From a virus (lineage: Duplodnaviria > Heunggongvirae > Uroviricota > Caudoviricetes), in IMG/VR virus record IMGVR_UViG_2563366840_000010, positions 1-45,700 of that record: a DNA stretch of 45,700 nt; one strand, 5' to 3'. The notes beneath the pieces are model-generated. The model ran no database searches. It was not told where the DNA came from and worked only from the letters and a program-made list of their open reading frames with translations. Position 1 is the first letter of the stretch; each line of letters opens with the position of its first letter. The translations under genes were made by a program, and so were the position numbers. Positions 16,444 to 37,663 of this stretch are shown piece by piece.

Positions 16444-16518
16444 GGGTCAGTCGTATAAAGGTCATTACGGAAGGCTGTTAACCTTCTTATCGTGGTTCGA
16501 GTCCACGCTGTCCCGCCA
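16444..16518 (+). tRNA. tRNA-Asn (anticodon GTT), phage-encoded
   Basis: Hand-folded cloverleaf: acceptor stem with one T-T mismatch, D-loop with GG, anticodon stem GAAGG/CCTTC and loop CTGTTAA, T-arm CGTGG-TTCGAGT-CCACG, discriminator G, CCA. Confidence 0.55.
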
Positions 16519-16980: not shown

Positions 16981-17397
16981 GCTGCGCGTCAGAGGTTCGA
17001 TTCCTTTGCCCGCTCCAGTAAAAGCTTTCCAGTCTGCGATGATGGGTTCCCCGGAGTGACTGGAAAGCGACCTGGTTTTGAATGGGCGCTGCTTTTTGCA
17101 AAATTGCTGTGTGAAAATACTGACCTTTGGGTTCAGCGCTCATCCAAAAGCATCACGTGAATTCACCAACGCTCATGTACTCTCCAGGAAACAATAAGTG
17201 ATTCTGAAAAGTTCCGGTTAGATATTGCCCCGGTCACCGGATGATTTTATCTTTTGGTTCGTGGTGAATCCCCCTATGCGGCGGGGCGTCCAGTCAAACT
17301 TTTTTGTCCAGGTTTGTTTGCGCGGAACTAGTCGGCTGGGGCTGTTCCACCGGGAGGCACCCGGCGCCACCTCCTTGACGGTATTGTTATTTTTCAT

Positions 17398-17424
17398 GCC
17401 TGTTCGTCCGAGCAGGCTTTTTTT
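17398..17424 (+). terminator. intrinsic terminator (GCCTG-ttcgtccgag-CAGGC + T7)
   Basis: Seen directly; no convincing plus-strand CDS upstream. Confidence 0.6.
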
Positions 17425-17455
17425 GCCCGCATTATCTTCATTGAAAACTGGCAAC

Positions 17456-17833: not shown

Positions 17834-18112
17834 ATGACCAGAATGAGCACCATTTACAGCAGACTTTCATATGGAACAGGAACCACGCTGACCGGCTGCG
17901 GTGTATCAGCGAAGGCATATGCCGAAACAGCTAAAACAGCAAAAGAGGTGTCCTGGATGTTGGCCGACAGAATTGCAGGGTTAAGCCTGAGCGACTGGGC
18001 AATTATTGTCGGTATCGCATGCACTGTTATTACCTGTGCAGTGAACTGGTATTTCCGCTGGAAAGAACGGGAGGATCGGCGCAATGGCTATGCCACCAAA
18101 GCTGAAGAATAG
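17834..18112 (+). CDS. pinholin, phage-21 S21-like (92 aa)
   Basis: GGAGGTGA RBS; two TMDs; C-terminus [11 protein letters not shown] parallels S21 YFKIREDRRK. Confidence 0.8.
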
Positions 18113-18656
18113 CGTTATTGCAGCGATACCCGCTGGCGCTATTGCTATCGCTGCGGCGTTGATTACTGGCCCAACGGGTAATGATGGCCTTGAAGGTGTA
18201 CGCTATCAGCCTTATCGGGATGTTGTTGGAGTGTGGACTGTATGCTGGGGCCATACTGGTAAAGATATTATCCTCGGCAAGACCTACACCAAAGCAGAGT
18301 GCCAGGCGCTGCTGGATAAAGACCTGAATATTGTCGCCCGACAGATTAACCCATATATCAATGCTCCGATCCCCGAAACGATGAGAGGGGCGCTGTACTC
18401 ATTTGCGTATAACGTAGGCGCGGGAAACTTCAAAACCTCCACACTGTTACGAAAAATCAACCAGGGTGATTCGAAAGGCGCATGCGAACAACTGCGGCGC
18501 TGGATCTATGCTGGTGACAAACAGTGGAAGGGTTTAATCACGAGGCGTGAGATTGAGCGTGAAGTTTGCCTGTGGGCAGAGAAACCTCAGGTTCTGGGGG
18601 ATGGACTCGGGCCGCTTAACCCTGGCATTCCGGTATCAGTTCCGGGGGTATTCTGA
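18084..18656 (+). CDS. SAR endolysin, GH24 lysozyme, R21-like (190 aa)
   Basis: N-terminal signal-anchor [27 protein letters not shown] and lysozyme core close to phage 21 R as recalled. Confidence 0.85.
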
Positions 18657-19192
18657 TGAAACCCAGAAAAATTACGATTGTTGCGGTTCTGCTGGTGGCT
18701 GTCGTAATCATTATTGCAGTGCTTAGCGTATTACTGGTTCGTAGCCGCTCAGCTCTTGAAACAGAACAGAGTGAGAATCGGGTATTACGTAATGATAACG
18801 CGCTGCAGGCGACGGTGATAACTACACAGGCTTTCAACTTCAATCGGTTTAACCAGATAGCAGAGAACGCCAACCGCCTTAACTCGCTGATCGATGCCGG
18901 TACTGAGAAAACTGTCATCGAATACCGGGAGATTCTCCGACGTGAAAAGACCTGTGATCTGCCTGTTCCTGCTGATGTCGCTGGTGGGCTGCTCAAATAC
19001 GCGTACCGTTTACGTGCCAGCGCAATGCACCCCGATACCGGGAACACTAACGCAACCGATGATAGTACCGCTGCCGCCAGCTCAATGACGTATTGCCAGG
19101 CCGTCCTCTGGATTGAACCTTTGCTGGCTGTTATTGAGAAGGGCAACAATAACCTGGCGGGTATACGAGAGATTGAGAAGTTACGAAAATGA
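18656..19192 (+). CDS. i-spanin (Rz-like), N-terminal TMD (178 aa)
   Basis: ATG overlaps the endolysin stop; embedded lipoprotein ORF in +1 frame. Confidence 0.6.
   Translation: MKPRKITIVAVLLVAVVIIIAVLSVLLVRSRSALETEQSENRVLRNDNALQATVITTQAFNFNRFNQIAENANRLNSLIDAGTEKTVIEYREILRREKTCDLPVPADVAGGLLKYAYRLRASAMHPDTGNTNATDDSTAAASSMTYCQAVLWIEPLLAVIEKGNNNLAGIREIEKLRK
18894..19088 (+). CDS. o-spanin (Rz1-like) lipoprotein embedded in Rz; start possibly GTG at 18942
   Basis: Lipobox LVGC, Pro-rich C-terminus. Confidence 0.55.
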   Translation: MPVLRKLSSNTGRFSDVKRPVICLFLLMSLVGCSNTRTVYVPAQCTPIPGTLTQPMIVPLPPAQ

Positions 19193-19766: not shown

Positions 19767-20669
19767 ATGCCTAATTGGAGCGACGTACTGGGCGAGATAA
19801 CGGCTCTCGCCCATAAAAGTCCTATGGATGAGGTTCGCCGTAAATACTTATCTCAACTTTCGAATCATACTGGAAGAAATGTAATCACATATTACTCAGG
19901 GTGGTTACAGCATGGTGGTGCAGAAGTACGCCATCTTACTCAGATGACTGATGATGATAAGAACGGGTTGATGACAGCCATCAATGGTTTAGATGTATCA
20001 AAAGGGTTGGATTTGATACTTCATACTCCAGGTGGTGATATTGCCGCTTTGGAATCAATCGGGCATTACTTAAGGTCGAAGTTTGGAACTAACATCAGAG
20101 CAATTGTTCCTATGATTTCAATGTCCTGCGGAACTATGCTTGCATGTTGTGCCAATGAAATCATCATGGGTAAACAGTCCAACATTGGCCCAATTGATCC
20201 TCAGTTCAACGGTTTCTCCACCCATGCCATCATTGAAGAATGGAATCGTGCGCAGACGGAAATTTTTCAAAATCCCGCAGCTGTTCAGATGTGGCAGTTC
20301 ATTCTTCAAAAGCTAAACCCGACGATCATCGGCGAGTGTGAGAAAGCAATCAAATGGGCAAATGAGATTGTTAAGCATTGGCTTATGACAGGCATGTTTG
20401 ATAATGATCCTGAGGCAGAATCAAAAGCAACACATGTTTGTTCAGAGTTAAACAACCATCACACAACCTATACCCACTCGCGTCATATTCATTTTGATAA
20501 GGCGCAGAAAATTGGGTTGAATGTTACCGAACTTGAAAGTGATCAAGTACTTCAAGATTTGGTTTTGACTATACATCACAGCTACATGCATTCTTTTGGT
20601 GGAGCACCACTGGCAAAAATCATTGAAAATCATAACGGTAACGCAATGATTTGGAATATCCAGTCTTAA
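19767..20669 (+). CDS. ClpP/S49-fold (SDH-type) serine peptidase-like protein (300 aa)
   Basis: LHTPGGDIAALESIGHYL and SMSCGTMLACCANEI segments resemble ClpP/SppA-fold peptidases; start 3 nt after the upstream stop. Confidence 0.65.
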   Translation: MPNWSDVLGEITALAHKSPMDEVRRKYLSQLSNHTGRNVITYYSGWLQHGGAEVRHLTQMTDDDKNGLMTAINGLDVSKGLDLILHTPGGDIAALESIGHYLRSKFGTNIRAIVPMISMSCGTMLACCANEIIMGKQSNIGPIDPQFNGFSTHAIIEEWNRAQTEIFQNPAAVQMWQFILQKLNPTIIGECEKAIKWANEIVKHWLMTGMFDNDPEAESKATHVCSELNNHHTTYTHSRHIHFDKAQKIGLNVTELESDQVLQDLVLTIHHSYMHSFGGAPLAKIIENHNGNAMIWNIQS

Positions 20670-20687
20670 TCCCCCCTGTCTGATTCC

Positions 20688-20716
20688 AGCCTCGCCTATG
20701 CGGGGCTTTTTTATTT
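20688..20716 (+). terminator. intrinsic terminator (AGCCTCGC-ctat-GCGGGGCT + TTTTTTATTT)
   Basis: Seen directly after the cassette. Confidence 0.7.
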
Positions 20717-20790
20717 GCGGTACGCAGCACACAGAACCCACTACCTGGGACCCTTCGGCCAGAGAGCCGACATTGCCTTACCCTCACATT

Positions 20791-20816
20791 GCCAGCCTGT
20801 CGCTGGCTTTTTTATT
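20791..20816 (+). terminator. second intrinsic terminator (GCCAGC-ctgtc-GCTGGC + TTTTTTATTT)
   Basis: Seen directly. Confidence 0.7.
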
Positions 20817-20889: not shown

Positions 20890-21207
20890 ATGGCAAAGCG
20901 TATGAATGACGACCACAAAATTGTAGGCCTGTCCTGGTTAGTCCTGCTCGGCATTGCATGCTGGGGCGGTTTAGTTCGCTACCTGATCGACGTAAAGCAG
21001 AATAAAGCGACATGGAGCTGGATAAACGCGCTGGCACAGATCGCTGTCTCCGGCTTTACCGGTTTGATTGGCGGGTTGATAAGCGTGGAGAGTGGGTTGA
21101 GTTTTCACATGATCCTTGTCACGTCCGGCATTAGCGGGGCGATGGGTTCAGTGGCTCTGACCTATTTCTGGGAACGCTTGACGGGGATGAAGAATGCAAA
21201 CCAGTGA
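20890..21207 (+). CDS. holin, class I, 3 TMD (105 aa), second lysis cassette
   Basis: GGAGGTGA RBS; three hydrophobic segments, charged C-terminus. Confidence 0.7.
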   Translation: MAKRMNDDHKIVGLSWLVLLGIACWGGLVRYLIDVKQNKATWSWINALAQIAVSGFTGLIGGLISVESGLSFHMILVTSGISGAMGSVALTYFWERLTGMKNANQ

Positions 21208-21634
21208 TAAAGGCATTGCCCTGATCAAAGAGTTCGAAGGTTGCAAGCTCACTGCCTATCAGGACAGCGTCGGCGTTTGGACGATCGGTTATGGCTGGAC
21301 TCAGCCCGTCGACGGGAAACCAATCCGTGCCGGGATGACAATTAAGCAGGAAACGGCAGAACGCCTGCTGAAGACAGGAATGGTCAGTTACGAAAGTGAC
21401 GTGTCACGACTGGTTAAAGTTGGCCTGACTCAGGGGCAATTCGATGCCCTGGTGTCGTTCACGTATAACCTCGGTGCGCGGTCATTGTCGACATCGACTC
21501 TCCTGCGAAAACTCAACGCCGGAGATTACGCTGGTGCAGCCGATGAGTTCCTGCGCTGGAATAAAGCTGGTGGGAAGGTGCTGAATGGGCTGACACGTCG
21601 GCGGGAGGCAGAGCGGGCTCTGTTCCTGTCATGA
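21194..21634 (+). CDS. soluble endolysin, GH24 lysozyme (146 aa)
   Basis: EFEGCKLTAYQDSVGVWTIGYG catalytic region typical of T4/P22-type lysozymes. Confidence 0.85.
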   Translation: MQTSDKGIALIKEFEGCKLTAYQDSVGVWTIGYGWTQPVDGKPIRAGMTIKQETAERLLKTGMVSYESDVSRLVKVGLTQGQFDALVSFTYNLGARSLSTSTLLRKLNAGDYAGAADEFLRWNKAGGKVLNGLTRRREAERALFLS

Positions 21635-22101
21635 TTGGCGCGCTGGTTAAGCGTTACTGGCTGCAACTGATTGTGGTGTCGGTAATCGGCGTGCTGGCGT
21701 TCTTCGTTAACCACTACCGCGACAACGCCATCACCTACAAAGACCAGCGCGACAAGGCAATTGAGAATCTCAGCCTTGCGAAAAATACCATCGATGACAT
21801 GAAGGTGCGCCAGCGTGATGTCGCTGCACTGGATGCCAAATACACCGGAGAACTGGCTGATGCGAAAGAAACCATTGAGCGTCTGCATAGCGATGTCATT
21901 GCTGGCCGTAAGCGGCTGCAGCTCAACGCAAACTGTCCCGCGAACGGAACGACCAGCACCGGCGGCCTGGGCGATGTTACCGGCCCCCGACTTACTGACT
22001 CCGCTGAACGGGATTATTTCACCCTCAGAGAGCGAATCGTCACAGTGACGAAACAGGTTGGATATTTGCAGGAATACATCAAAGAGCAGTGCTTAAATTG
22101 A
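21631..22101 (+). CDS. i-spanin Rz (156 aa)
   Basis: N-terminal TMD, coiled-coil-like body, embedded Rz1. Confidence 0.7.
   Translation: MIGALVKRYWLQLIVVSVIGVLAFFVNHYRDNAITYKDQRDKAIENLSLAKNTIDDMKVRQRDVAALDAKYTGELADAKETIERLHSDVIAGRKRLQLNANCPANGTTSTGGLGDVTGPRLTDSAERDYFTLRERIVTVTKQVGYLQEYIKEQCLN
21860..22048 (+). CDS. o-spanin Rz1 lipoprotein (62 aa)
   Basis: Lipobox LLAVSGC; C-terminal TPLNGIISPSE matches lambda Rz1. Confidence 0.7.
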   Translation: MRKKPLSVCIAMSLLAVSGCSSTQTVPRTERPAPAAWAMLPAPDLLTPLNGIISPSESESSQ

Positions 22102-22133
22102 TGTTAAATTAACCTTTTACATACGGAGGGGTT

Positions 22134-22538
22134 ATGCAAATAGATCAAGAATACCTTAAAGGTTTGCTCGAGGCTTTCGAGGCATCGGATTCACCTGATA
22201 CCGATATTATTCGATTAAATGATTTAGGGTTCAATTGTGAAACTGACACATTTGTGTTTCATATGCGTTTGCTTGAGGATAGAGGGCTGATTATCAGGAG
22301 TGATGGAGAGCCCGGCTTTGGTGCTATTCAGTCTTTAGACGGAATGACTCACTGGGCTGTAATGCCCTTGCGATTGACCGCGATGGGGCATGACTTCTTG
22401 GATGCTCTCCGTAACAAAGAGGTTTGGGCAACATTAAAAACCGGATTCAAAGATGCCAGTATGGGCACGCTGATGACAGTTTCGAAGGAGCTGTTTAACC
22501 GAGCTCTAGCTAAGCAACTTGATAAAATGTTCGACTAA
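22134..22538 (+). CDS. hypothetical protein (134 aa), moron-like
   Basis: Lower-GC ORF followed immediately by a terminator. Confidence 0.6.
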   Translation: MQIDQEYLKGLLEAFEASDSPDTDIIRLNDLGFNCETDTFVFHMRLLEDRGLIIRSDGEPGFGAIQSLDGMTHWAVMPLRLTAMGHDFLDALRNKEVWATLKTGFKDASMGTLMTVSKELFNRALAKQLDKMFD

Positions 22539-22560
22539 CCGCCTACGGGCGGTTTTTTAT
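22539..22560 (+). terminator. intrinsic terminator (CCGCC-tacg-GGCGG + T6)
   Basis: Seen directly. Confidence 0.75.
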
Positions 22561-22614
22561 TGTCAACTTTATGAGCAAACTGATCTTAATTACTGTAACT
22601 AGGTGGTCAATGAT

Positions 22615-23253
22615 ATGGCAACGCTTAAGGACCTTTCCAGTCAGTTAAGACAGCTGCAGAAGCAAATACCGTTTGCGACTGCCCAGGCTATGACTAAAGT
22701 GGTTCGCCAGATAGAAGCGGCCCAAAAAACAGCATTTGAGCGGAATCTGGATAATCCAACACCTTTTACAGTTAAATCGGTTGGGTCAGTTGGTGCCAGG
22801 AAAAACAGCCTTCGTGCGAAGGTGTTTGTTCGTGATACTGCTGCTGGTTACCTTGAACCCTTCGAGTTCGGCGGAGAGCACAAGCTTAATGGAAGTGCTT
22901 TGCTTAACCCGAAAGACATAAAGCTTAATAAATACGGCAACCTGCCGCGTAATAAGCTCTCACAGCTTAAAGCAAAGGAAAATGTATTCGTAGGTGAGGT
23001 TGATGGCGTTAACGCTGTCTGGCAGCGTAAGAAGCCGATGAAAGCTAAGAAGCGACGGGCCAAACGTTCCGCTAACGGGACGCGAAGACCGAAACGCAAA
23101 CAGCGTTCTCCAAAGCTTTTGATCCGGTTTGGTGATGCGCTACCTGTGACTCCAGTGCTGGGGTATATGGATAGGGCCCGTACCATGGCGAACGCACTGC
23201 TACCGTCTGCTTTAAATCAGGCGATAGCAGAAGCCATCAGGACGGCAAAATAA
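22615..23253 (+). CDS. hypothetical phage protein, basic C-terminal region (212 aa from ATG; ORF opens at 22603)
   Basis: AGGTGG RBS before ATG 22615. Confidence 0.5.
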   Translation: MATLKDLSSQLRQLQKQIPFATAQAMTKVVRQIEAAQKTAFERNLDNPTPFTVKSVGSVGARKNSLRAKVFVRDTAAGYLEPFEFGGEHKLNGSALLNPKDIKLNKYGNLPRNKLSQLKAKENVFVGEVDGVNAVWQRKKPMKAKKRRAKRSANGTRRPKRKQRSPKLLIRFGDALPVTPVLGYMDRARTMANALLPSALNQAIAEAIRTAK

Positions 23254-23263
23254 AAGCAGTAAC

Positions 23264-23767
23264 TTATAAGTTAATTTCGCAAGCTTTTATGAAGCTGTTT
23301 ACTGCAGTTGTCGATCCAGAAACATTGGCTGACATGGAATGCTGGTTTCCGCCATCCTTTGTTTGCACACCAACTAACACTTTGGATTTCGCCCCCTGAA
23401 GCTGCTTAAGCACTGTTTTTAGTTGGTCCGCGTCATCCGATTGAATCTGGAGGCTCTGAACATTACGTCTTGAAAGGGTAGCATCGAGCTTCACTGCGGT
23501 ATTCCCGTCGACCTTCATTATCAGGTCCATTGGTACCTCTGATAGTGATTCGGTGCTTTTATCCATTTCAACGTATGCCGCCGATAGCTTTTCTTTAGTG
23601 CAGTCAAACACAATGGCGCCATTGTCGGATGAAACCTCGCCAAGCATCATTGCTTTCTTACCACCAGAGAAAAGGTCATCTTCAGTATTAGTTACCCACT
23701 GGGCATGAGCAATTGGTGATGCCAGCACTGCGGCTACGAAAGTTATTTTGATTATATTGTTACCCAT
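23264..23767 (-). CDS. secreted hypothetical protein with signal peptide (167 aa)
   Basis: MGNNIIKITFVAAVLASPIAHA-QW signal peptide; AGGAGA RBS; opposite strand to the late operon. Confidence 0.6.
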   Translation of the reverse strand: MGNNIIKITFVAAVLASPIAHAQWVTNTEDDLFSGGKKAMMLGEVSSDNGAIVFDCTKEKLSAAYVEMDKSTESLSEVPMDLIMKVDGNTAVKLDATLSRRNVQSLQIQSDDADQLKTVLKQLQGAKSKVLVGVQTKDGGNQHSMSANVSGSTTAVNSFIKACEINL

Positions 23768-23910
23768 TACATTCTCCTTGTATTGAATAGGAATAATCAT
23801 AGTCGGAGCGAATGGTCGAAGCCATTAAAAAAATGGGTCCTTCCTGAGACTTTTGTAAGGTACGGGCATTGCGCGCCGCGGTGTTTTCCTAGCTACAACT
23901 TTCAGATTTG

Positions 23911-24058
23911 TGTCCCATGTCCCACCTCTGGCGATCATTACGGACACCTCGCCAGCTCTGGCTATTCCAGTTTATTCCAGTGGGACATTCTGGTGGGACA
24001 TGGCAAAAATGTCCCAGGCGAATGTCCCACCCCAGAAAATGTCCCAGGTGATGTCCCA
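23911..24058. repeat. array of eight ATGTCCCA-type heptamer repeats (six direct, two inverted) upstream of the small terminase gene; candidate cosB-like sites
   Basis: TGTCCCA at 23911, 23919, 24010, 24023, 24039, 24052; TGGGACA at 23981, 23994. Confidence 0.5.
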
Positions 24059-24627
24059 TGACCACGATGAACCAGAGTCAGTACGCACAACATTCAGGTG
24101 TGGATCGCAAAACAATTGGCCGGTGGATTAAAGCCGGGCGCTTCATTGTGATGGACGGAGACCTGATTGACGTAGAGGCCAGCGATGCGGCATTGAAGAA
24201 AAACCGCGATGGCAAAGACCCGCGCGCCTCGAACGCGAAGAAAAAGAAAACTCCCGTCGTTAGCGATAACGATGATGACGGTGATGAAATCAATAAAACT
24301 GTCCGCCAGATAATGCTCACTGAAGGGGCAGATCTTTCGAGAGAGGAAGCGGGACGTATCCGCGAGAATTACATGGCCCTGCAGGCAAAGCTGCAGTATG
24401 AAAAAGACAGCGGCCAGCTTATTGAGCTGACAGCAGCCGAGGAGGTTTTATTCAACGCCTTTCGCCAACAGCGTGATGCCTGGCTTAACTGGCCGTCCAG
24501 GGTGGCGCCGCTAATGGCTGCTGATCTGGATGTACCGGCGGACAGGATGACAGAGGTGCTGATTGAACATGTCCACAAACACATCTCAGTCCTCGGAGAG
24601 CCAGAGTTTAACCCGGCAGAAGATTGA
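24058..24627 (+). CDS. terminase small subunit, Nu1-like (189 aa)
   Basis: N-terminal HTH (RKTIGRWIKAG) and position before the gpA-like large subunit. Confidence 0.7.
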   Translation: MTTMNQSQYAQHSGVDRKTIGRWIKAGRFIVMDGDLIDVEASDAALKKNRDGKDPRASNAKKKKTPVVSDNDDDGDEINKTVRQIMLTEGADLSREEAGRIRENYMALQAKLQYEKDSGQLIELTAAEEVLFNAFRQQRDAWLNWPSRVAPLMAADLDVPADRMTEVLIEHVHKHISVLGEPEFNPAED

Positions 24628-37623: not shown

Positions 37624-37650
37624 AAACCGCCGACATGGCGGTTTTTTTAT
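37624..37650 (+). terminator. intrinsic terminator (ACCGCC-gacat-GGCGGT + T7)
   Basis: Seen directly. Confidence 0.7.
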
Positions 37651-37663
37651 TTCCGGAGGCGTG

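Follow-up and report, generated by a model that had tools for sequence, protein, structure and literature searches.

Two probable cargo slots around a conserved gene near the right genome end of an enterobacterial prophage type

The bor gene of phage lambda is expressed in the lysogen, where its phenotype has been shown. Tail completion proteins were only recently located in a virion: a single copy of gp51 of phage 80alpha occupies the tail lumen, with the DNA end on one side and the N-termini of the tape-measure protein on the other, and it has a helix-insert-helix architecture that was also modelled for gpZ (PMC11661146). The cohesive end of Serratia phage BZS1 (vB_SspM_BZS1) was mapped by experiment, and its authors described a gene with a conserved position upstream of the small terminase gene (terS), whose product resembles minor tail proteins but whose structural role they doubted (PMC7556043). 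Here we analyse three genes, termed ORF1, ORF2 and ORF3 (ORF, open reading frame), that occupy positions 22134-23767 of a 45,700-nucleotide (nt) stretch of Caudoviricetes DNA, the whole of IMG/VR record IMGVR_UViG_2563366840_000010 from position 1 to 45,700 (hereafter the window). An earlier note on this DNA had described them as three unknown genes between lysis and packaging, one of them secreted, on the opposite strand and a candidate for lysogenic conversion.

We give a probability of about 0.6 to the following reading as a whole. The segment forms the right-hand terminus of the virion DNA in a temperate, cos-packaging myophage that combines lambdoid early genes, a lambda-like terminase and head, and a Mu-like tail. 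The three genes do not make up a unit: a conserved gene, ORF2, stands between two cargo slots. The gene in the second slot, ORF3, is a moron, i.e., a mobile and autonomous cargo gene, here in antisense orientation.

The three genes and the cos region

We compared 80 related IMG/VR loci, in 76 of which the terS side was readable. ORF2 was directly followed by terS in all 76 of these. ORF1 was found in 16 of the 80 loci, and ORF3 in 38, always in antisense (38/38). The interval from ORF2 to cos (slot B) is empty in about 30 loci, which form a class with a gap of ~242 nt between ORF2 and terS, and contains other cassettes in about 11. Gaps of 805-858 nt correspond to ORF3 alleles with 61-100% identity, the sole exception being locus L095 (805 nt, another cassette), and gaps of 606, 722 and 780-789 nt correspond to cassettes other than ORF3. 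The majority of these other cassettes also bear a minus-strand gene. In L046, L048, L080, L084, L085, L095 and L098, this gene encodes a protein of 91-106 aa (MAKFTVRVEL...) with a sub-threshold match to GhoS (E 0.0018), mostly accompanied by a small plus-strand ORF of 47-55 aa. The remaining variants of slot B have a 117-aa plus-strand ORF or a 90-aa minus-strand ORF.

Individual genomes show the same independence. Escherichia coli AW1.7 and a mussel isolate of ST536 have ORF1 and ORF2 and lack ORF3. KFu022 has ORF2 and ORF3, with two unrelated genes where ORF1 would be. Different genes lie between lysis and ORF2 in phiNP, in BZS1, and in Salmonella and Klebsiella prophages, and in L032 a Rz-like gene ends 57 nt 5' of ORF2, i.e., the interval between the lysis genes and ORF2 (slot A) is empty. 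In complete E. coli genomes, ORF3 was found in 23 of 5426 and ORF2 in 63. In some prophages (L033-L049, compared with the window) ORF3 and terS are 99-100% identical when ORF2 is only 91-93% identical, which places a recombination joint in or beside ORF2. Since the three genes vary independently, we read the gene order, which is lysis genes, slot A, ORF2, slot B, cos and terS, as two cargo slots around ORF2.

The three genes are adjacent, are poorer in G+C than the flanking sequence and lack known functions, as might be expected of a single functional system, e.g., a defence or toxin-antitoxin-like module. Yet, ORF1 and ORF3 can each be found in the absence of the other, and ORF2 in the absence of both, PADLOC gave no match, and the conservation of ORF2 extends much further than that of the other two genes. 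We regard such a system as extremely improbable and discarded it on the independent presence and absence of its would-be parts. Searches of PADLOC and NCBIfam gave no credible match for any of the three proteins, single-sequence searches of the PDB gave nothing meaningful, and scans for Rfam families and tRNAs found nothing inside the segment 22134-23767.

The segment lies between the Rz gene (21631-22101; Pfam Phage_lysis, E 5.5e-42) and terS (24058-24627; phrog_57, E 4.6e-36), i.e., between lysis and packaging as had been proposed. The window encodes an integrase and RecET, lambdoid replication genes, Q and lysis genes, as in a prophage-type genome. Its head and packaging module is lambda-like (terS, GpA-type large terminase gene terL, gpW, portal, S49 protease, decoration protein and capsid protein), and its last module is a Mu-like contractile tail. 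A 98.5% identical prophage is carried by E. coli ET881.

The right end itself was placed by the match to the end of BZS1, which encodes homologues of ORF2 and of the terminase, and by invariance in relatives. The conserved cos core (23835..23877, plus strand) consists of a 31-nt block in the cosQ position (23835-23865), invariant in six of six aligned relatives, phiNP among them, and of cosN (23866-23877), whose 12-mer GCATTGCGCGCC matches the BZS1 cohesive end exactly. Between cosN and the start of terS lies an array of seven ATGTCCCA motifs in both orientations (23917..24058). All seven exact copies of the motif fall within these 142 nt, the final one overlapping the terS start codon, where 1.68 copies are expected per whole window, and none of 100 shuffles reached seven. 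The array is probably a terS-binding (cosB-type) site. With this putative function, the succession of cosQ position, cosN and binding array is the layout of a lambda-type cos region.

The conserved gene ORF2

ORF2 (22615..23253, plus strand) lies directly upstream of cos and terS. It encodes a very basic protein of 212 aa, as the earlier note had read, with a pI of 11.08 and 43 lysines and arginines versus 15 aspartates and glutamates. Its ribosome-binding site, AGGTGG, is 8 nt upstream of the start, and the RefSeq annotation of ET881 has the same 212-aa frame. The protein matches phrog_1924, annotated as 'minor tail protein' (E 1.5e-62), and has more than 1000 homologues. In RcCronus (66 nt), R4C (46 nt), BZS1 and Yersinia phage vB_YpM, the homologue is the last or nearly the last gene before the physical right end of the genome, and in phiNP and Acetobacter phage phiAP1 it is directly 5' of terS. 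ORF2 has thus been kept beside cos and terS in phages of alpha-, beta- and gamma-proteobacteria with differing tails. It is a core phage gene, not cargo. A K/R-rich insertion at residues ~139-165, KKPMKAKKRRAKRSANGTRRPKRKQRSPK, is present in the enterobacterial homologues and partly in that of phiAP1, and is absent from the homologues of Rhodobacter, Dinoroseobacter, Ralstonia and Yersinia phages.

To place the family, we aligned seven gpZ proteins (lambda, N15, 1720a-02, mEp043, phi80, PhiR47_1 and Vibrio K243) and compared the resulting profile with that of the ORF2 family using hhalign. The local alignment spans 162 collinear columns, near the full length, with an E-value of 2.2e-4, and in global mode the probability rises to 82% (E 1.3e-6). 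The real score of 33.1 exceeds those of the reversed profiles (19 and 17) and of 30 column shuffles (at most 21.4), which also aligned over far shorter stretches. The comparison with the lone lambda gpZ sequence gave a probability of 6%, which is too weak on its own. Both families have pI values of 10.1-12.0. The AlphaFold2 (AF2) model of ORF2, itself of low confidence, has helices at residues 4-42 and 183-211 with strands between them, a layout that fits the helix-insert-helix architecture of tail completion proteins. From these results, we take ORF2 for a probable tail completion protein of the gpZ type whose gene lies apart from the tail module. It would be made late and, by analogy with gpZ and 80alpha gp51, would complete the tail by moving into the upper part of its lumen, where it would touch both the DNA end and the N-termini of the tape-measure protein and so render the particle infectious.

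Several observations weigh against this assignment. The probability in local mode is just 45%. ORF2 has no match in Pfam or NCBIfam, and the Pfam family Minor_tail_Z (PF06763) is touched by only one of 24 relatives, below threshold (E 0.013). The AF2 model is poor (predicted local distance difference test, pLDDT, of 50.2, from a shallow alignment), unlike the published models of tail completion proteins, which are confident (PMC11784142). The position is atypical for such a gene, which is not found here between the head-closure and tail-terminator genes, and ORF2 travels with the terminase module across tail types. Finally, the virion map of R4C, in which 12 proteins were placed, does not include its ORF2 homologue (PMC10276861). 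Tail completion proteins generally escape detection in cryo-electron microscopy maps of virions (PMC11784142, PMC11661146), and this last point therefore counts for little. The ORF2 family profile found nothing among PDB sequences, and the virion proteomics in the phiNP, R4C and marine-phage papers contained nothing usable for ORF2 homologues.

We also searched the tail region for another gene of this kind. Between the FII-like gene (31994-32353) and the sheath gene (33093-34595) there are one unassigned gene of 181 aa (32350-32895) and a DUF2635 gene. The 181-aa gene was considered as a second gpZ-like gene and rejected, as no similarity to gpZ was found, and no other gpZ-like gene was detectable in this interval.

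The same conserved position could have another meaning, i.e., ORF2 may be a non-virion accessory factor of lambda-type cos packaging that, e.g., helps TerS and TerL at cos or handles the right DNA end. The gene stays by cos, terS, GpA-type terL, gpW and portal genes in siphovirus and myovirus phages of alpha-, beta- and gamma-proteobacteria, the family is uniformly very basic, the R4C homologue is missing among the placed virion proteins, and the authors of BZS1 had their own doubts on a structural role. Yet, the match to the gpZ profile is full-length, collinear and above all controls, and proteins of the gpZ type are likewise basic, touch the DNA end and usually go unseen in cryo-electron microscopy maps. 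The invariant residues of ORF2 (L, P, F, A, G and R) include none of a catalytic type, and no nuclease or DNA-binding family was matched. We find an accessory packaging role unlikely. In its broader form, ORF2 and its more than 1000 relatives would make up a conserved part of lambda-type (GpA/Nu1) cos packaging that has gone unrecognised, with the terminase or the right end of the DNA as its target and a role comparable to that of HNH proteins for HK97-type terminases; this we find doubtful too, and slightly more so. HNH proteins of the HK97 gp74 type do share with ORF2 the position (last gene before cos and terS) and the conserved linkage to the packaging module, but ORF2 lacks an HNH motif as well as any conserved His or Cys, and its terminase is GpA-type, not HK97-type.

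ORF2 is a candidate gene for tail completion whose location is unusual yet conserved, and a family fixed by a DNA end that it may bind would be a convenient test case for this class. The assignment also bears on the earlier note, which had grouped the three genes as unknown and had named conserved virion or packaging components as the finding that would speak against its reading. ORF2, adjacent to terS in every readable locus and with a match to the gpZ profile, is probably such a component. The interpretation given there was right for ORF3, acceptable for ORF1, which is variable cargo, and wrong for ORF2, which is conserved and tied to cos and the terminase. As for the genes being unknown, ORF1 belongs to a named family, DUF2513.

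The predicted exported protein encoded by ORF3

ORF3 (23264..23767, minus strand) converges on ORF2, their stop codons lying 10 nt apart. It encodes a precursor of 167 aa with a predicted signal peptide at residues 1-22 (nt 23767-23702), and a mature protein of ~145 aa (pI 4.95). A strong Shine-Dalgarno sequence, AAGGAG (23779-23774, minus strand), is read 6 nt 5' of the ATG and is kept in alleles of 74-81% identity. The N-terminus, MGNNIIK-ITFVAAVLASPIA-HA followed by QW, has a positive n-region, a hydrophobic core (Kyte-Doolittle values up to 2.5) and an A-x-A cleavage motif. Since there is no Cys at +1 and no lipobox, the signal peptide corresponds on inspection to signal peptidase I. The junction between A-x-A and (Q/R)W is kept in most of 27 aligned homologues, with the variants TYA, SYA and VNA. 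The convergent orientation, signal peptide and ribosome-binding site had all been noticed before, and the pattern is kept in the family.

The initial search for ORF3 found only 33 relatives, all in Enterobacterales. The profile search extended the family to 270 clusters at 50% identity, mostly of 160-175 aa with few multi-domain proteins, and reached Alphaproteobacteria (Aureimonas). W24, C56 and C163 are invariant in 81 representatives of the family. Comparison of the alleles gave a non-synonymous divergence (dN) of 0.114 and a synonymous divergence (dS) of 1.48, i.e., a ratio of ~0.08: ORF3 is under purifying selection and is a real gene, not a chance ORF. The same holds for ORF1, which scores above a Pfam cut-off, and for ORF2 with its numerous homologues. 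No fitting family was found in Pfam, NCBIfam, PADLOC or the annotated PHROGs, and tblastn against 50,697 phage records gave no match. A match to DUF7767 (E 0.03) was rejected because it was seen in only one of 27 relatives.

Alignment with prophages that lack ORF3 shows the gene within a present/absent segment, 23254..23834 (3' limit approximate). In the prophages of AW1.7 and the mussel ST536 isolate, ~20 nt after the ORF2 stop are followed by the conserved block TGGGTCCTTCCTGAG...GGGCATTGCGCGCC. The boundaries of the cassette are clean, and its right limit lies just outside the conserved cos block. The G+C content of ORF3 is 0.446, compared with 0.539 for the lysis genes, 0.526 for terS and 0.555 for terL. 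Homologues occupy three other kinds of site. Firstly, Mu-like prophages (L014-L017, 6001-6504) have a 63% identical homologue at their right end, immediately after com/mom, and these prophages are found at various E. coli insertion sites (more than 200 contig blocks listed). Secondly, Mu-type tail modules can contain a homologue between the tape-measure gene and the DNA-circularisation gene, in the same direction as the tail genes. In the window this gap has 340 nt and is empty (37320-37661); it holds ORF3 homologues in a Dryocola prophage and in a metagenomic contig (L018 6001-6504; L102 5001-5504). Thirdly, a homologue is found in a Leminorella chromosome, with phage genes absent within 5 kb.

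We interpret ORF3 as a moron because of its presence or absence, its constant antisense orientation, the replacement of the slot content, the other sites and the low G+C. An analysis of homologue neighbourhoods had been suggested as a check on the proposal of a lysogenic-conversion gene. The proposal is supported in that ORF3 behaves as a moron, and conversion itself would be an extrapolation. Being antisense, ORF3 is not readable from the late promoter. Its transcript would oppose the late operon and probably start at a weak promoter belonging to ORF3 itself, so that the protein could be made in the lysogen. By inspection only, a candidate for this promoter is TGGCTT-17 nt-TATGAT (23824-23796, minus strand), preceded by an A/T run and with a -10 hexamer conserved in three alleles. 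The protein would be translated from the strong Shine-Dalgarno sequence, exported by Sec, cut after Ala22 and probably disulfide-bonded between Cys56 and Cys163. The mature protein, a 15.5-kDa beta-sandwich, would stay in the periplasm and, as our best guess, change a property of the lysogen envelope. For the segment as a whole, our analysis shows the anatomy of the genes, their synteny and cargo behaviour, the predicted fold and purifying selection, and from these we infer expression timing, export, the disulfide, the tail completion role of ORF2 and every phenotype.

Some of our results do not favour this scenario. A scan for sigma-70 consensus sequences called no promoter on the minus strand upstream of ORF3. 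The two stops are only 10 nt apart, which leaves no room for an ORF3 terminator, and the transcript would therefore run antisense into ORF2. Some homologues share the orientation of late tail genes, which makes late expression possible. Hence, ORF3 might serve the phage in lytic growth or at infection, e.g., as a periplasmic factor that acts at lysis on the envelope or, during the burst, against competing phages, and leave the lysogen unchanged. The co-orientation of the homologues next to the DNA-circularisation gene, the failure to find a strong promoter and the Mu-type contractile tail present in every prophage context seen for ORF3 agree with this. So does the fold search against BFVD, which matched uncharacterised proteins of KP15 and RB16, two T4-like phages with a lytic life cycle (Foldseek E 4e-5, TM score, i.e., template modelling score, of ~0.5). 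Yet, in the cos-side slot ORF3 is antisense to the late operon in all 38 loci, about 30 of the 80 close relatives have no insert at all, which shows that ORF3 is dispensable for the phage, the Leminorella homologue stands apart from phage genes, and the composition and clean boundaries are of the moron kind. A purely lytic role is in our view a minority possibility.

The AF2 model of ORF3 is confident (pLDDT 86.4, predicted TM score 0.79). Beyond a disordered signal peptide, it shows a beta-sandwich with nine strands and two helices. The known fold closest to this predicted model is that of IalB (PF06776; PDB 3dtd), with 14% identity, and the ORF3 family differs from it by its own invariant tryptophan and two cysteines. 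As IalB was matched at the fold level only, we take the similarity for resemblance and not for family membership. One of 43 distant ORF3 relatives touches the Pfam IalB profile (E 0.002). Other searches weaken even the link at the level of the predicted fold: Foldseek of the model against the PDB returned only noise from TEAD and fibre-head proteins (TM scores of at most 0.33), the family profile had no useful match among PDB sequences and did not find 3dtd, and Pfam IalB matched neither ORF3 nor its 26 close relatives. A de novo designed protein matched in the PDB profile searches (E ~1e-3) was judged spurious. One fold match of ORF3 was to a component of the flagellar motor (8z5n_A).

This resemblance raises the question of whether ORF3 is an IalB-type invasion or virulence factor acting on an animal host. 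The mechanism of the IalB domain is not known, and the domain also occurs in non-pathogens, where it has been linked to envelope growth (RgsG; PMC7327166). The window protein shows no IalB signal at the sequence level, and the carriers of ORF3 come from frogs, chickens, water and humans alike. We therefore consider a virulence factor of this type improbable. For the moron reading, exclusion of other phages seems a somewhat more likely role than host-directed virulence, and the family could represent periplasmic phage-exclusion proteins of a new class, associated with Mu-type tails. As it stands, it comprises uncharacterised, predicted exported proteins with an IalB-like fold and no Pfam model, which move between prophage slots. 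A simple phenotype screen of lysogens could give it a function.

ORF1, neighbouring features and comparison with known systems

ORF1 (22134..22538, plus strand) is the cargo of slot A. It encodes an acidic protein of 134 aa (pI 4.8), has a G+C of 0.44 and is preceded by the ribosome-binding site GGAGG (22125-22129). The protein matches Pfam DUF2513 (PF10711) with 41.1 bits, for a cut-off of 29.6 (E 2.5e-10; residues 5-110 on profile positions 4-99 of 100), and phrog_585 (E 3.4e-28). ORF1 is variable cargo of a named family. Directly after its stop lies a plus-strand hairpin with a T-run resembling an intrinsic terminator (22537..22564), in line with the terminator proposed for this gene. The hairpin itself (22537-22554), AACCGCCTACGGGCGGTT, has seven pairs, five of them G-C, and is followed by TTTTATTGTC; the tract after it reads TTTTATTG. 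The scan found nine such sites per 4.2 kb versus 4.4 expected and is weak evidence alone, so that we give weight to this hairpin because of its position at the gene end. No plus-strand promoter was called 5' of ORF1, and the simplest reading is that the gene would be read from the late operon under Q antitermination.

Upstream of the segment, the window has two lysis-type cassettes. In the first, a 190-aa Phage_lysozyme gene (E 1.9e-44) precedes a 178-aa ORF (18084-19192). The second, 1.7 kb downstream, has a full set of holin, lysozyme and Rz (20890-22101), with an embedded Rz1 frame with a lipobox (LAVSGC) inside 21815-22048. The interval 19767-20807 encodes a 300-aa SDH-type ClpP-like serine protease (PF01972, E 8.4e-23) in an island of low G+C (0.36-0.44), and terminator-like hairpins follow the protease gene just 5' of the second holin (20688-20707 and 20791-20807). 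This island looks like another cargo insertion. Downstream of the Q-like region, we found a tRNA-Asn (GTT) at 16444-16518 and an Rfam match to the STnc100 small RNA at 17236-17428 (71.7 bits for a gathering score of 47).

Three genes of a widespread enterobacterial prophage type that would be annotated as 'hypothetical' are now sorted into two cargo genes and one core gene. The two cargo hot spots that flank a conserved gene at the right end may help prophage annotation and the hunt for conversion genes. These results do not overturn current understanding. Cargo slots that end the late lysis region beside cos are a familiar phage arrangement. A related phage already described is BZS1, which has the same cos sequence and a direct homologue of ORF2 (phiBZS1_p72, 71% identity). 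It differs in having two small plus-strand ORFs between this gene and the DNA end, where the window has ORF3.

For ORF2, the systems to compare are the tail completion proteins (Ne1) gpZ, SPP1 gp16.1, HK97 gp10 and 80alpha gp51. The length is similar (~190-215 aa), and ORF2 shares with this group the full-length match to the gpZ profile, the extreme basic pI and, in its low-confidence model, the predicted long terminal helices with an inserted middle part. It differs by its place at the far right end beside cos, by scoring below the Minor_tail_Z threshold and by its K/R-rich insertion. For ORF3, the comparison is with lambda bor (and lom). Bor is a lipoprotein, whereas ORF3 has a predicted signal peptidase I site (AHA followed by Q) and no lipobox, and there is no sequence or fold relationship between the two. 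The likeness is one of gene and place: like bor, ORF3 is a small gene for an envelope protein, predicted to be exported, that lies 3' of Rz near the right genome end, in the orientation opposite to the late operon, and that is dispensable, of patchy occurrence and atypical in base composition.

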